Positions 2,303 to 8,470 of a stretch of DNA of 64,000 nucleotides are shown here, piece by piece (the stretch's first letter is position 1; each line of letters begins with the position of its first letter). The DNA is from a virus. Lineage: Duplodnaviria > Heunggongvirae > Uroviricota > Caudoviricetes. The translations under genes were made by a program, and so were the position numbers. The stretch lies in IMG/VR virus record IMGVR_UViG_2778261631_000002. The stretch is one strand, 5' to 3'. Under the pieces are notes generated by a model, which saw only the letters and a program-made list of their open reading frames with translations, was not told the DNA's origin and made no database searches.

Positions 2303-3346
2303 TTATCTAACACTCGACGAATGACTTGTGATAACGCCAACTCCAAGCGCGTAATCAAAGAACAATCGTTGATGCATCGCCAACCTACCGTGCGTCTTCT
2401 CCCAATTATCGCGGTCACGCTCAATATCACGCTGGCATGACTGGCACAGAGGAATTGCGTAAATGTCATGCGCGCATAATCGACTATGACGAACGATATA
2501 AGGCGTAATGTGAGCGCCAGCTCCCGCAGCTCCACACCCACAGCATGGACGGGAAGCAACAAAGTCCATGTACTCAGGTAATTTTAGCGATTGCAGTTTT
2601 GGTATTTTGAAATGCGCCATGCCAGGGTCGGAGTCAACATCCACAGGGCATACTTTTGCACGCATCGGCGCGGCGCGTTCTTCCATCATCTGAACATATG
2701 CTGTAGCGCGATCGTCATACGGGCGAATATCCGCCTCTTTCAGAGGTCCGCTATCCTGCGGAGTAGCCTTCATCTTATTTATTGATATGCGGCAGACTTC
2801 TTCCGGCATCAGGTGCATCATGTTGCGCATGAAAGCCCACCAGCACAGCTCCTGAATACTTAAATCATGGCTATTTGAAAGGCCCATTTCCTGACGGGCG
2901 ACATCCAGTATCCAGTTAACGCGATTATTGTGCAGCGTTTCTTTCAGCTCATTAAAACCACGCATCCGATAATGGTTATCGTGATGCCAGCACAACAACA
3001 CCGCGCTATTGTCTCGTTCAGCGTGGACAATATGGTTGTCACACCAACTACGATCTGCGGCCTGGCATTGACCCTCTTTCCTACGCAACCACGCCACCAG
3101 CGCGTCAATTCCACCAATACGGCGAAACAGTTCATCGCTGTTAAAAAACGGCTGCAACGCCTCATTTGTTGCCATGGTTTGCTCGGTAACAACGAGGCCG
3201 TCTTCCATGTGCTCGATTAACTCACGCGGCACCGGCTCCATAATAAATTTACGGCCAGCCTCCACCAGCTTTCTGACCTCCTGATCCACTTTGAATGTGG
3301 CGACGCCAAGCTCTTTCTGTACAAAGGGAGTAATTACGGCTTTCAC
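2303..3346 (-). CDS. Hypothetical Cys/His-rich protein (347 aa) at the P1 pdcB position
   Basis: Long ORF downstream of doc; C-terminal CCGCG...H...C..C..C cluster suggests metal binding; function unknown. Confidence 0.5.
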
Positions 3347-4795: not shown

Positions 4796-5380
4796 ATGCC
4801 TAATCGCATTCCTCTCGATCCTGTATTGCCCAAAAATTTTGACTGCACTCCTAACGAGAAACGCTCTAAAGCTCAGCTGGACGCCTGGTGGGACCATCCA
4901 TATGGGGTTACACAACCTGACGGGAAAATTGTAGTTTATTGTCTGAATGGTGGGGCGTGGGACCGTCCATCCGTGCTTTGTTTGGCAGATAACTATGATG
5001 AAGCCTGTGAACTTGCCGAAAGACAGCAGGCAAGCTGGGTAAAAACACGGTCTGAACCGACATTCATGTTTTCAAAAGAACCGCCATTTATACTGGCGAG
5101 GATGCCGCAGCGACCGGATCATCAACAAGAAATTGTTGCTGAATTTTCCTCAAGGGATGAGATGAATCTCTTCTCATTAAAGCAGGAAGAAAGGGATCGC
5201 GTCGAAGTGTCTCCAACTCTCGACCACAACCGGATGAACCTAGCCCAGCTCGCCTGGTACAGCAAAGAATTAGAGATGTCTATTGCCCGGCTTGAAAACG
5301 AAAAAGCCGCTATCCAAGTCCAGCACGAAGTAGTTCTGAACCGGATTAGAGAAATGCAAAACGATAACAGGGGATTTTGA
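4796..5380 (+). CDS. Hypothetical protein (194 aa), probably LexA-regulated (P1 lxr-like position)
   Basis: ORF with RBS TAAGGA, divergent from humD across the LexA box. Confidence 0.6.
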   Translation: MPNRIPLDPVLPKNFDCTPNEKRSKAQLDAWWDHPYGVTQPDGKIVVYCLNGGAWDRPSVLCLADNYDEACELAERQQASWVKTRSEPTFMFSKEPPFILARMPQRPDHQQEIVAEFSSRDEMNLFSLKQEERDRVEVSPTLDHNRMNLAQLAWYSKELEMSIARLENEKAAIQVQHEVVLNRIREMQNDNRGF

Positions 5381-5737
5381 ATGGCTAAAATCGAGTACCA
5401 TCGCGATCGCGGTAATTACCTGGAAATATACGATCATGAATCTCTTAACGATATCAACGATGCGTTATATGAATACTGTGAAAAAACGAGCATCACAGAT
5501 GCACCTGATGCATTTGTCGAGATGCCGGTATATCTCCGCGACATCTATGCAATACGAACACCGCCCGTATCGGTGATTCACATTGGCTATGTCCGCCTGT
5601 CCATCGAAGAAGATGAAGATCGTTATATCGTGCGCCACTATACATTGGACAGAAAAGAACTTCCTAATGAATGGAACATGAGTAATTTCTACAACGGTGA
5701 ATATGGCTTAAAATCCGCTAATAATTTACGGTCATAA
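5381..5737 (+). CDS. Hypothetical protein (118 aa), translationally coupled to the upstream gene (TGAATG)
   Basis: Stop-start overlap with the 4796..5380 ORF; no resemblance to theta/Hot. Confidence 0.55.
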   Translation: MAKIEYHRDRGNYLEIYDHESLNDINDALYEYCEKTSITDAPDAFVEMPVYLRDIYAIRTPPVSVIHIGYVRLSIEEDEDRYIVRHYTLDRKELPNEWNMSNFYNGEYGLKSANNLRS

Positions 5738-6599
5738 TCTATACAGGCATGTATAACAACAACGAGCCTATTAGCTGTCAACAACGTTATTTCCTCAAAT
5801 AAGAAAAAGCAGAAAAAAAATTGTTTAAGGTCACAAATTGTGGCCTTGATGGAGGAGGGAGGCTTATTGGCTATGGCTAAAAATCAAATTAGACACTTCA
5901 TGTTGCTGTAGCTCATCAAGATCCGAGGCCACAAAACCTTTTCCGAAAAACTTCACAAGTAACTCACTAGCCGCATCATTGTCACCTATTACACGAAAGT
6001 CATACGGCAACGTCGCAAGTTGACGATGTAATCCTGCTGAGAAAGTCGAATCTAACAGCGCCCAGAATTCCCACCGCAGGATAATACTCGCCTCTTAATA
6101 CTGTATATATGTTGTTACGATATGTTTTTCTGTCTCTAAAAAAAGATGTTAATAGAATGCTAACCATTGAAGGGGATAAAAATATACAATTCCAACAAAC
6201 GTTATTTTTAACAATTTTTTTCTTTGCGTTGACTTTCCCGGACACCTTGTCTGACCGAAGGTGCGCGAAAGCCACTTTTTCCTTCCTGAGTTATCCACAA
6301 AGTTATGCACTTGCAAGAGGGCCATTTTCTACATATTGTGGTGGCTAACAGATGAAATGAATGTAGATTAATTGAAGATAAGGAGAAAATTTGAGATGCA
6401 ATCATGACGTTAATAGATAGGGTCTGCATTACAGACCCCACCCGCATCAAGGAATTAGCCGTTCCCTGATGTTTTTCCGAAAACATGTGCCGTAAGCTCA
6501 CGTTAACGACTTTCATTCACCGAATCCAACTATATAGGGGTTGGGTTTCTACGTCAACGTGAGCAAGTGCACCTTTACATTTGACAAGGAACCACCTGA

Positions 6600-6737
6600 A
6601 TGAACGCTTTTTTTCAGTTCCTGAGTGCATTTTTAGATGCGCCTATTATTAGCCAGATTCTGGCTATTATCCTCATCATCGTTTTGATTTTGCTTTTAAG
6701 GTCAGTAAAAAATGGAATTATGCACTGGCTTACTTAA
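6600..6737 (+). CDS. Small hydrophobic protein, 45 aa, single predicted TM helix (MNAFFQFLSAFLDAPIISQILAIILIIVLILLLRSVKNGIMHWLT)
   Basis: ATG with AAGGA RBS 9 nt upstream; sits in an AT-rich convergent intergenic region; below the 60-aa ORF-track cutoff. Confidence 0.35.
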   Translation: MNAFFQFLSAFLDAPIISQILAIILIIVLILLLRSVKNGIMHWLT

Positions 6738-6756
6738 TGTTTCAGTGAAACATTAA
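6734..6756. repeat. Perfect 23-bp palindrome TTAATGTTTCA-G-TGAAACATTAA straight after the small ORF stop
   Basis: Exact 11-bp inverted repeat with a 1-nt centre; no flanking U-run, so more likely a protein-binding site than a terminator. Confidence 0.4.
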
Positions 6757-6812
6757 AATCTCCTTGATGTGGAAACAATCATTTTCTGTATGTGCTGGTG
6801 GGCACCTGTAGT

Positions 6813-7175
6813 TCAGCTTTCGTTGGCATTTAACTTCGTCTTTGCTTTCTCCACCAGCAACTTCCAGATGCCTATTTCATTAGCAGCCGCCTTGATGGCG
6901 GCATAAAAAGCATCTTGCTGATCGTAACGCTGGATCTGTTTTTTCAGTTTTGCCTCCACCAATTTAATTTCATTACGTGCTTTCTGAAGCCGCATCACCG
7001 CCCGGTTACATCTGTTCTTGTATAGCGTGTTAATCTCTGACAATTGCTTTAATTTACCAGCCTGACTGCGGATTATCGCCTCCCTGGCTTCTGCCGTGCG
7101 TCTCATCTGATCTCTTAAGAGTTCACCGTTTTCGATAATTCTTTCAAGGTGTTTGATGTGATCTGCAACTCTCAT
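6813..7175 (-). CDS. Hypothetical coiled-coil protein (120 aa)
   Basis: Last gene of a minus-strand operon; overlaps the upstream gene. Confidence 0.6.
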   Translation of the reverse strand: MRVADHIKHLERIIENGELLRDQMRRTAEAREAIIRSQAGKLKQLSEINTLYKNRCNRAVMRLQKARNEIKLVEAKLKKQIQRYDQQDAFYAAIKAAANEIGIWKLLVEKAKTKLNANES

Positions 7176-8470
7176 ACTTCACCCTCGCTTGTATCACCAG
7201 CGTCCACCAACGACAATAAAGCCCTGGCCATCTTATGAACCAACAGTGCATCAATAATGCCAAGCGTATGCCCCGGCTTAATGTTTAATGCTGCCTCAAG
7301 ATGACACCTTTCCAGACCGCTTTTCTCGGCTTGTTTATGATGATATGGCGTAATAACGTCGCCCAAAACACGGCTAATTCTTTCTCGTAATTGCTGGGTG
7401 CCAGCACACTTGATCGCTGTATCGTGGAGACGGTTAACCAGTTCGCGATAAACATGCGGCTTAATGCGGATACGTTCACCGGTGACGCCCTTTCCTGGCG
7501 CTGGCACCGAACTATCCGGAATATCCGGATAGTTGCCAGCCTCGTAAGCTACCCGCAGCCAGTGCATGAATGTTTCAGTGGACACACAACCACAGTCCAC
7601 ATCGATTTTCCCGCGTTGCTGTTCCAGCCATTGCCCAAAATCCAACCTGTAAGTCTTACTTTGGCTTACAGGTTGGCTACCCTGAAGCATGGCAGCGTGG
7701 CAGGCATACTCAACGCCCTTAACTGCATCTGCGCAGTAGTTATAGCGATTGCATTCCACTAATTTCCGTTTGAGTTTTTCAATTGCCTGCGCGACATCAG
7801 CCTGTATTACAGGAACTGGCGGAACGGCTGTTTGCTCTCGAACGTCATTAGTCGCTATCGGTTCTGCTGCCAACTGACTGGCATATTTGTTAATGGTAAC
7901 GATAAGCTCTTGCTCAGCCTCATCCAGACAATCACCGATACCTCGCCTGTCACCGTCAAAATCATCGAAATCGGCACGAATCTTGGCAACCTTCAGGATT
8001 GCGGACAACACCTCACTAGGAATTACCGGATAGTTGGTTGACGTTTCCGCGATTTCCCGAAAATTATTGGTTGACGAATTCTTGTTTTCCCGAAAGTTTC
8101 CGGACTGAAGCATGGCGGCGCGGCAGGCGTTCCAGCCATCTGCGTAACAATCTCTGTGTGTCTTGAAATATGTCACCGCCCTTGGTACATCGTTTACGTC
8201 TATTTCATCCGGCACAACCGGCGCAGGTGAGTCAGCATAAACAGGAATAACGTCCGGTTGCTCTTTATTGCTTTCATCCGTTAAAGCCCAGAATAATTTC
8301 CCGGCCGGATGTTTGAAAATATAAGCAACTGGTTCTGCTTCCAGCGATGCCAGAGCAATTCGTGCCAGTTCTTCCGCTTCTTCTGCTGGCAGTACAACGT
8401 TGCTACCAGGTCCGTATGTTTCGCGCCACTGCTTGATTGTCAGTAGTCGCTCTTTGGTAATAGTGATCAT
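7172..8470 (-). CDS. Hypothetical protein (432 aa) with an internally duplicated Cys motif
   Basis: Two copies of CYADGWNACRAAMLQSG / CADAVKGVEYACHAAMLQGS-like segments. Confidence 0.6.
   Translation of the reverse strand: MITITKERLLTIKQWRETYGPGSNVVLPAEEAEELARIALASLEAEPVAYIFKHPAGKLFWALTDESNKEQPDVIPVYADSPAPVVPDEIDVNDVPRAVTYFKTHRDCYADGWNACRAAMLQSGNFRENKNSSTNNFREIAETSTNYPVIPSEVLSAILKVAKIRADFDDFDGDRRGIGDCLDEAEQELIVTINKYASQLAAEPIATNDVREQTAVPPVPVIQADVAQAIEKLKRKLVECNRYNYCADAVKGVEYACHAAMLQGSQPVSQSKTYRLDFGQWLEQQRGKIDVDCGCVSTETFMHWLRVAYEAGNYPDIPDSSVPAPGKGVTGERIRIKPHVYRELVNRLHDTAIKCAGTQQLRERISRVLGDVITPYHHKQAEKSGLERCHLEAALNIKPGHTLGIIDALLVHKMARALLSLVDAGDTSEGEV

Follow-up and report, generated by a model that had tools for sequence, protein, structure and literature searches.

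The DNA analyzed here (the window: 64,000 nucleotides of IMG/VR record IMGVR_UViG_2778261631_000002) belongs to a P7/SJ46-type relative of phage P1 and contains, between the converging genes upf93.6 and pmgV, a long A+T-rich gap. This interval consists of two unrelated halves: positions 5738-6200 are debris, and positions 6201-6803 are a small self-contained expression module. The reading of the module that we favor, at about even chances, is that of an antisense-controlled gene for a small membrane protein, laid out like a type I toxin-antitoxin locus and lying beside gene debris. The gene in question is a 45-codon open reading frame (ORF), termed ORF45 here. Most components of the interval are ordinary or already annotated; what appears to be new is a small membrane-protein module that bears an antisense promoter and is driven by a host promoter, on the strand ignored by the P1 and P7 reference annotations.

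A module shared by three clades of P1-like elements

Across phage records, 72,556 plasmids, 5426 Escherichia coli genomes, IMG/VR and metagenomes, the sequence of 6334-6812 was found only in P1-like elements, with 229 plasmids and 216 of the 5426 complete E. coli genomes (~4%) as carriers. Only three allelic forms exist: W (the window, P7 and SJ46), P (P1; 96%) and D (~81% at the DNA level); a search of genome contigs with the ORF45 peptide and a 20-mer of the leader returned these three clades alone. The W type accounts for 37 of 82 loci and for 84 E. coli records at 99% identity or above. The block from the DnaA boxes to ~6803 is retained in all three clades despite different flanking genes: its left neighbor is either hot, as in clade D, or a gene remnant, and its right neighbor is either pmgV or, in clade D, a type I restriction-modification system (hsdM) or other genes.

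The synonymous divergence (pS) between W and D is 0.40 in ORF45 as against 0.08 in humD and 0.10 in upf94.2. Because the module so exceeds the backbone in this respect, it can be seen as an old allele long maintained through exchange rather than as a product of recent shared descent. The divergence is distributed unevenly along the block (Table 1), a pattern that bears on several of the explanations weighed below.

ORF45, a probable small membrane-protein gene

A first-pass annotation, made by a model from the letters alone, had called a single-transmembrane (TM) ORF of 45 amino acids with a ribosome-binding site in the gap. This call is upheld: the Shine-Dalgarno (SD) sequence AAGGAA lies 8 nt upstream of the start, and the product is predicted to be a single-TM peptide, MNAFFQFLSAFLDAPIISQILAIILIIVLILLLRSVKNGIMHWLT, with a basic stretch after the TM segment. 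The frame is intact in 19 of 19 full-length haplotypes (i.e., full-length module copies aligned from viral-contig and annotated-record loci), having in each exactly 45 codons, no indels, and its start, stop and SD (AAGGAA or GAGGAT). Of the 45 loci of P or D type, at least 44 likewise keep it intact, and the W-type copies are 100% identical across the full 45 residues. Between W and D the peptides are 58% identical, with exchanges among I/V/L/F and between K/R and a conserved N-terminal FFQFLSAFL-x-AP, and the TM core (residues 16-33), which includes a single polar residue in either allele, has a mean Kyte-Doolittle hydropathy of 3.4 (W) or 2.8 (D). When the 33 W-D substitutions are placed randomly, the ORF stays open in 8% of the trials and stays open with an apolar TM core in 2.9%. 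The evidence for coding is moderate, not strong, and ORF45 is probably a real, conserved small membrane-protein gene.

ORF45 has already been called a hypothetical protein by the annotators of SJ46 and by PGAP (WP_000123562.1). PGAP annotates WP_000123562.1 only in P1-type copies and leaves the equally intact W- and D-type copies unannotated, an inconsistency within RefSeq. A few database copies of the peptide (P0001-P0004) have altered C-termini, with a frameshift or junction after residue 31-36; natural disrupted variants thus exist and are rare.

At the 3' end of ORF45 stands the perfect 23-bp palindrome TTAATGTTTCA-G-TGAAACATTAA. It is as perfect as first described and is its sole copy within the 64 kb; it overlaps the stop codon instead of following directly after it as had been stated. 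All that clade D retains of it is the outer 8-bp stem, in which one pair has become G·T. The palindrome does not have the makings of an intrinsic terminator, for its stem is A+T-rich, there is no T-run on either strand and the terminator scan did not report it; most simply, it would form a 3' stem-loop of the ORF45 transcript. Its arms, (G)TTTCA, recall box A of P1 ParB, and there are loose resemblances to CRP, LexA and TyrR sites. A role as a regulator- or protein-binding site was rejected, given the wrong spacing, no box B nearby and no second copy in the window. A second, near-perfect 23-bp palindrome, TATTAGCCAGA-T-TCTGGCTATTA (10 of 11 pairs), lies inside ORF45 at 6647-6669 and is unconserved in clade D.

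A promoter captured from nrdA

The module opens with a copy of the E. coli yfaL-nrdA intergenic region, the DNA just upstream of the ribonucleotide reductase genes. A 111-bp query around the DnaA box found matches of 96-99% in every one of the 5426 complete E. coli genomes; these lie under ypaB, directly before nrdA, and correspond to 6255-6329 of the window. The shared segment includes both DnaA boxes and the -35 element TTGCAA, points towards the downstream transcript as it does in E. coli, and ends at ~6331, at the -10. Here, the phage has TATTGT as against TATCTT in the host, and the sequence downstream is unrelated to nrdA. The host nrdA sequences downstream of the -10 hold NrdR boxes. 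From the rightward promoter so formed, transcription would start at ~6346.

The single consensus DnaA box that had been noticed at about 6290 is there, and a second follows it in tandem; both (TTATCCACA and TTATGCACT) are invariant across all clades and present in 80 of the 82 loci. Since the box is one of two inside a 131-bp copy of the nrdA promoter that points at ORF45, it is neither free-standing nor origin-like. That this DNA is nrdA-like has been on record since 1993, when GenBank M95666 annotated an "nrdA-like promoter" and a "dnaA box" here; the P1 genome record (NC_005856) also remarks on the 56-bp identity. The likeness to E. coli is limited to the core in P1 and clade D. In the window, the identity extends upstream by another 90 bp, suggesting that DNA was later exchanged with the host or an element like phage Cyrano. 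By alignment, the upstream block of the window (6083-6333) appears to be derived from the Cyrano type.

A conserved leader with an opposing promoter

Between the captured promoter and ORF45 lies the leader core, the most conserved block of the module. It starts with the invariant GATAAGGAGAAAATTTGAGATG, which comprises a strong SD, AAGGAG (6380-6385), and a cluster of start codons. At the peptide level, the short frames behind it are unconserved. On the opposite strand it carries a leftward sigma-70 promoter that is the best match to consensus in the interval (10 of 12) and identical in 82 of 82 loci. Transcription from it would begin 78 nt ahead of the ORF45 ATG, at ~6522, and cross the leader in the antisense direction. 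On the right, the conserved block ends where this promoter has its upstream boundary. The two promoters stand face to face, 176 bp apart.

The leader also has marked folding potential: compared with shuffles, the plus-strand mRNA model (6350-6765) has a z-score of -4.9 and the predicted 123-nt minus-strand RNA one of -4.5. The hairpin at 6420-6438 shows one compensatory change between clades and, with its tail UAUCUAUU, could at most terminate the minus-strand RNA weakly. The minus-strand promoter is located inside the inverted-repeat structure of 6496-6564, and the second leader hairpin has a stem that is constant and a loop that varies between clades. An Rfam scan of 5600-7000 returned only chance-level matches to STAXI and BsrG (E 0.75-1.5) and nothing for Sok, RdlD, IstR, AgrB, OrzO, Sib or OhsC. 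Sequestration of the SD and a hok-like 5'-3' fold-back, both predicted in W and neither conserved in D, were rejected as evidence. At 6525-6543, CCAACTATATAGGGGTTGG holds the -10 of the minus-strand promoter in its loop and resembles the E. coli nrdA leader motif CCCCCTATATATAGTG. Should that motif be an NrdR box, the antisense promoter might come under the influence of NrdR.

How ORF45 might be controlled

These elements can be put together as follows. The captured nrdA promoter, with its two DnaA boxes, -35 TTGCAA and new -10 TATTGT, would fire rightward and give a low-level, DnaA-sensitive transcript, i.e., an mRNA with a leader of ~250 nt followed by the 45-codon ORF for a single-pass membrane peptide. 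The leftward promoter would make, from ~6522, an RNA fully complementary to the leader, which in clades P and D may read on towards hot. Such an RNA could hold ORF45 down by forming a duplex over the conserved AAGGAG and start-codon cluster, acting there on a standby or leader-ORF site, and the face-to-face promoters would further limit ORF45 by transcriptional interference; type I toxin-antitoxin loci operate in this manner. Through its DnaA boxes, the nrdA-type promoter would tie any expression of ORF45 to the replication state of the host.

Several observations weigh against this picture. No transcript, translation or toxicity data and no transcript maps for the region were found in the accessible literature. 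The rightward promoter matches the consensus at only 8 of 12 positions, for which reason the promoter scan did not flag it, and in clade D its -10 is an even poorer match. As a coding sequence, ORF45 gives a weak signal: the ratio of nonsynonymous to synonymous substitution rates (dN/dS) is 0.41 and similar in other frames, so that it was rejected as proof of coding, the differences fall on the three codon positions as 12/8/13, and the nucleotide divergence of 24% is no lower than that of the 3' flank (25%). Homologs outside the three clades were not found by a word-indexed search, by HMMER over 1.84 billion representatives, or among viral contigs and metagenomes, and none of the three alleles scanned belongs to a Pfam, NCBIfam, PADLOC or significant PHROG family (phrog_1184 appears at E 0.058, which is not significant). 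On the RNA side, covariation amounts to one compensatory pair (RNAalifold) and unbiased tests are not significant, as is the case on either strand when single-sequence minimum-free-energy structures are tested against the other clade. Because the covariation is this thin, no claim is made for a proven RNA structure or a preferred strand. The terminator scan found no clear intrinsic terminator for either transcript. Finally, CRISPR interference knock-downs of upfN and upfO, minus-strand ORFs annotated in P1 over the same DNA, scored as non-essential for lytic growth (PMC10695390), as did deletions covering upfM-upfO that are cited in the same paper. Dispensability for lytic growth fits an accessory function in lysogeny or stress, or no function at all.

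Table 1. Features of the gap and of the module within it, in order of position, with divergence between W and D where segments were compared
Feature	Position	Strand	W-D divergence	Gaps	Remarks
Gap	5738-6812				Between upf93.6 (+, ends 5737) and pmgV (-, ends 6813)
Terminator hairpin of dead primase gene, GGTCACAAATTGTGGCC	5829-5845	-			Conserved with the PhiR41_1 hairpin directly downstream of the intact gene
Primase/Toprim 3' remnant	5864-6065	-			~67-70 codons plus stop, without start codon
12-codon ORF	5874-5912	+			Antisense of primase remnant
upf91.7	6000-6275	-			Reference annotation
umuD-type upstream-region remnant	6083-6200				Alignment with phage Cyrano
upf91.6	6149-6325	-			Reference annotation
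Copy of E. coli yfaL-nrdA intergenic region (upstream of nrdA, with promoter)	6201-6331	+			131 bp, ~95% identity, pairwise alignment
upf91.4 (and P1 upfN)	6208-6516	-			Reference annotation
DnaA boxes to -10	6291-6339		12%	none	
DnaA box 1, TTATCCACA	6291-6299	+			From sequence
DnaA box 2, TTATGCACT	6303-6311	+			From sequence
Rightward promoter (putative)	6311-6339	+			-35 TTGCAA (6311-6316), 17-bp spacer, -10 TATTGT (6334-6339)
Segment	6340-6376		27%	18 nt	
Leader core	6377-6565		9%	1 nt	Plus strand, ORF45 leader; minus strand, candidate antisense RNA gene and promoter
Hairpin GGGTCTG-cattA-CAGACCC	6420-6438				One compensatory change, T6423/A6435 to C/G in clade D
13-nt inverted repeat, GCTCACGTTAACG / CGTCAACGTGAGC	6496-6564	+			Encloses hairpin CCAAC...GTTGG
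upfM/upf91.3	6517-6630	-			Reference annotation
Leftward sigma-70 promoter, TTGACG-17-TATAGT (P1 'PupfN')	6557-6529	-			Promoter scan, P1 annotation
Segment	6566-6599		33%	1 nt	
ORF45 with SD	6586-6737	+			SD AAGGAA (6586-6591), ATG 6600, 45 codons, stop 6735-6737
ORF45	6600-6737		24%	none	
Perfect palindrome, TTAATGTTTCA-G-TGAAACATTAA	6734-6756				11+1+11 bp, overlaps ORF45 TAA stop
3' flank	6738-6803		25%	6 nt	
3' flank of module	6757-6803	+			Alignable between clades, 25% divergence and indels; module ends 10 bp before pmgV stop

Parallels with known systems

ORF45 was likened from the outset to type I toxins or small membrane regulators. It has the size and the membrane segment of the former (fewer than ~60 amino acids, with a hydrophobic transmembrane helix), and the toxin-like layout of the locus holds up; the likeness does not extend to membership in a toxin family. 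Profile scans, in which the LdrA control itself matched the Fst family weakly (E 0.021, below the curated cut-off), did not place it in the Hok/Gef, Ldr, Fst, TisB, ShoB, Ibs, DinQ or Zor families.

The closest parallel in layout is with ldr/rdl of E. coli. Its toxin, too, is a small peptide with one TM segment; the N-terminal segment is hydrophobic, basic residues follow the TM segment and there is a D-x-AP-I-like motif. The antisense RNA gene of ldr/rdl is on the opposite strand in the 5' leader, a few tens of nt before the start codon: rdlA starts 48 nt upstream of the ldrA ATG, as compared with ~78 nt for its predicted counterpart in the window. However, ORF45 has 45 residues rather than 35 and no significant sequence similarity to the Ldr peptides (nothing by BLASTP against LdrA, and a marginal shuffle p of 0.01-0.12 by Smith-Waterman against LdrA-C), and the candidate antisense RNA of the window comes without a clear terminator or an Rfam match. 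With hok/sok of plasmid R1, the module shares a plasmid-borne location, a long structured leader with an upstream translation-initiation element under the antisense RNA (a candidate one in the window), an antisense promoter that faces that of the toxin and, in the window, a possible 5'-3' pairing of AAGGAGA with UCUCCUU. Against this, ORF45 does not match the Hok family, the 5'-3' pairing is lost in clade D, and there is no conserved mok-like overlapping ORF. The E. coli nrdAB promoter, which is regulated by DnaA, Fis and NrdR, provides the third parallel; the captured copy keeps its boxes, -35 and orientation, but would drive a 45-codon ORF and not a ribonucleotide reductase. The P1 ORFs upfM/upfN/upfO and the P7 ORFs upf91.3-91.7 occupy the same DNA as the module, but on the opposite strand and in unconserved frames.

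A further parallel might be struck with phage Cyrano (OV696614, locus L005, 2940-3745) and CMS-2020a (locus L086), in which an nrdA-like promoter with DnaA boxes adjoins an intact LexA box and is followed by an almost invariant leader of ~360 nt, a hydrophobic ORF of 27-31 amino acids (3589/3601-3684) whose differences are mostly synonymous or conservative, and a strong terminator. The opposite strand of the Cyrano leader has a sub-threshold Rfam match to AgrB (3348-3267; 27.6 bits, as against a gathering score of 40) that ends in a minus-strand terminator; the leader contains the 16-nt direct repeat TAAGTATCTGGCGACT, with one copy in the region around the AgrB-like 5' end and the other nearer the small ORF. 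This unit, unannotated in both records, looks like a candidate type I system of the dinQ/agrB type. It resembles the module of the window in its promoter block (~87%), its long conserved leader, its tiny hydrophobic ORF and the candidate antisense gene in the leader; it differs in having clear terminators and an intact LexA box, which the window lacks. Downstream of the -35, the P1-type and Cyrano modules show no sequence similarity. Since these downstream parts are unrelated, two different small-peptide cassettes appear to share one captured promoter, and by analogy the Cyrano case raises the prior for the module of the window.

Competing explanations

The antisense-control reading can be narrowed to a special case, a strict type I toxin-antitoxin system for addiction or stress, in which ORF45 would be a membrane-damaging toxin and the minus-strand RNA from ~6522 its unstable antitoxin, the toxin being freed upon plasmid loss or replication stress. 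This is possible, if doubtful. The small size of the peptide and its one TM segment followed by a cationic stretch, the ldr/rdl-like placement of the antisense promoter in a leader that is more conserved than the ORF, a position 2.5 kb from phd/doc and adjoining SOS genes, the dinQ/agrB-like candidate in the Cyrano-type relative of the upstream block, and the LDAP(I/V) motif of ORF45, which in the alignment recalls DLAAPI of LdrA, all speak for it. The absence of ORF45 from Hok, Ldr, Fst, TisB, DinQ and the other families, the marginal Ldr alignment, the missing Rfam antitoxin and the dispensability of the region for lytic growth speak against it, and the near-absence of inactivated ORFs in the 82 loci is silent on toxicity either way.

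The main rival to the antisense-control reading, and an unlikely one, is that the block serves hot, the gene for a homolog of theta. In P and D, the minus-strand promoter and the first ~145 nt behind it would be a distal promoter and leader of hot, with the DnaA boxes as a roadblock or regulator and ORF45 as fortuitous; clade W would have lost hot and be left with the block as a recent orphan. This is in keeping with the location of hot, which in P1 as well as clade D lies downstream along the minus strand, no terminator being annotated in between, with the weak coding signal of ORF45 and with a W-P divergence too small to show continued constraint after the loss of hot; moreover, hot is reportedly expressed in lysogens as well as from its late promoter. 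Yet hot of P1 is already provided with a late promoter of its own, 20 bp before the gene, and a distal promoter leaves unexplained why 145 transcribed nt diverge by 9% when the next 40 nt are riddled with indels, and why ORF45 is open, indel-free and hydrophobic with its SD kept. Further, the numerous W-type genomes counted above keep the block unchanged.

It is quite improbable that the whole kilobase is a neutral spacer or scar that encodes nothing and owes its conservation to recent descent and recombination tracts. The setting would suit such a spacer, for the gap lies in a hypervariable region of P1-like phage-plasmids and its left half is demonstrably debris; and three alleles give low comparative power. 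The right half does not conform: its divergence is uneven, 9% in the leader core as against 24-33% elsewhere, with indels (bar one gap nt) absent from the leader core and the ORF, neither the promoter hexamers nor the DnaA boxes vary between alleles that have a pS of 0.40 in the ORF, and both strands fold far better than shuffles. Thus, the description under which the first-pass annotation would have been abandoned, a variable spacer with no conserved small ORF, fits the left half and not the right.

That the real genes of the interval are the minus-strand ORFs (upfM/upf91.3, upfN/upf91.4, upf91.6, upf91.7 and upfO) is very improbable, although these are the only ORFs annotated here in P1 (NC_005856) and P7 (AF503408) and upfM has a PHROG of its own (phrog_31823), built from such annotations. 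In clade D, where the check covered the two in the alignable part, a 1-bp deletion shifts the upfM/upf91.3 frame, which also contains two stops, and the upfN/upf91.4 frame has 1-bp and 19-bp indels and several stops, so that neither is taken to be a gene; upf91.4 also lacks a start codon in P1. The frames of upf91.6 and upf91.7 extend over the DNA that was copied from the nrdA promoter of E. coli, that of upf91.7 over the scar as well, and PGAP never calls any of the minus-strand ORFs. All of upfM/upf91.3, upfN/upf91.4, upf91.6 and upf91.7 look like annotation artefacts.

The P1 origins oriR and oriL lie elsewhere, and there is next to no chance that the DnaA boxes, for all that one has the consensus sequence and lies beside AT-rich DNA, mark a further replication origin or a DnaA-titrating site: there are just two, they arrived with the nrdA -35 in a 131-bp host-derived block, and no iterons or direct-repeat families were found.

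Debris in the left half and the setting of the gap

The left half of the gap is non-functional recombination debris, a string of scars within the hypervariable region between pmgT and humD. Its largest component is what remains of a primase gene. Window positions 5811-6065 align at ~90% (DNA) with phage PhiR41_1 (the remnant with 3054-3266 of locus L004), where the counterpart is the last ~70 codons of an intact 174-codon gene and the hairpin downstream of it; the intact product is a primase Toprim-domain protein that matches phrog_849, DNA primase, at E 9.5e-54. In the window, the homology ends abruptly at ~6065, the N-terminal two thirds and the start are lost, and ~67 of the 174 codons are left. 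The minus-strand frame that had been noticed as protein-like and lacking a start is indeed open, running from 6095 to the stop codon at 5864-5866, and no ATG precedes its weak TTG. The suspicion of a gene remnant, which was to be followed up by comparison with P1 and its relatives for a deleted gene, is thus confirmed, the truncated gene being the C-terminal third of the primase that is intact in PhiR41_1; by homology, it is a pseudogene fragment. Within this remnant, at ~6000/6001, P7 (AF503408 92007-93063) tolerates an IS903 by which it differs from the window. Since IS903 is present in the primase remnant of P7 and not in that of the window, the latter is P7-like and not P7 itself.

The hairpin, SD and 12-codon ORF first placed at about 5829-5911 are all present; their reading as signals for translation is not supported. 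The hairpin, which is followed by a T-rich run on the minus strand and has one C·A mismatch in the window, is the terminator of the dead primase gene. Because the purine-rich SD-like run, GGAGGAGGGAGG, lies between the stop of the remnant and the GGTCACAAATTGTGGCC hairpin, and the 12-codon ORF is antisense to the remnant, neither has independent support. The palindrome, the DnaA boxes and the primase remnant are above chance, since each can either be matched to a homolog or would very seldom be expected at random. This does not hold for the 12-codon ORF, which is simply the antisense of the remnant's coding sequence.

Next to the primase remnant lies what is left of the region upstream of a umuD-type gene. 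Window positions 6083-6333 are ~87% identical to phage Cyrano, where the block starts directly upstream of a umuD homolog and has a perfect, intact LexA box, TACTGTATACACATACAGTA. From the corresponding box of the window (6099-6114), 11 internal bp that Cyrano has are deleted, which leaves a dead second copy of a umuD-type SOS operator; the functional LexA box, that of humD, is 1.5 kb away.

The wider setting is that of a P1-like phage-plasmid. Positions 5300-7300 are 99.9% identical by megablast to phage P7 and 99.6-99.7% to SJ46 and several isolates called "P1", whereas reference P1 is homologous to the interval (96%) only from ~6261 rightward and has lxr and hot in place of the left part. 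In this region, the minus strand of the window corresponds to the plus strand of P1. The minus-strand neighbors are pdcB, pdcA, doc, phd and humD, with pmgV and its operon on the same strand to the right of the gap; the plus-strand, P7-type genes are upf94.2 and upf93.6. The early impression of a long, A+T-rich gap at 5740-6812 proved accurate, its G+C content being 35-40% as against ~47% in the flanks, and the interval belongs to "highly variable region 8" (pmgT...humD) of P1-like phage-plasmids (PMC9603915). The genes upf94.2 and upf93.6 (window 4796-5737; 1057-2004 in locus L007) fall into phrog_6164 and phrog_5797, families of unknown function, and co-occur with hot in the clade-D plasmid pRHB27-C04_2. 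The layout of the window is therefore derivable from such a plasmid, with hot replaced by the primase and umuD scars.

Implications

The P1 and P7 reference annotations of the interval appear to name the wrong strand, and the only reading frame that survives comparison is that of an unstudied 45-codon membrane peptide. Even if the module proves inert, it is useful to recognize that the left half is plain debris and that the DnaA box is second-hand. A bolder version of the antisense-control reading, and a rather unlikely one, is that P1/P7-type phage-plasmids carry a second RNA-controlled module besides phd/doc: a new family of type I membrane toxins, wired to DnaA through the nrdA promoter and checked by a cis-antisense RNA, with the stolen promoter as a portable 'replication-stress switch' that has been fused to unrelated small toxins in P1-like and Cyrano-like elements.

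If the antisense-control reading is true, a classical model plasmid-prophage would possess an antisense-regulated small membrane protein, possibly as a second addiction or stress module, carried on P1-like plasmids that also spread resistance genes. It would likewise show clearly how a phage can put a cell-cycle promoter of its host, here the DnaA-controlled promoter of nrdA, to new use in timing the expression of an accessory gene.

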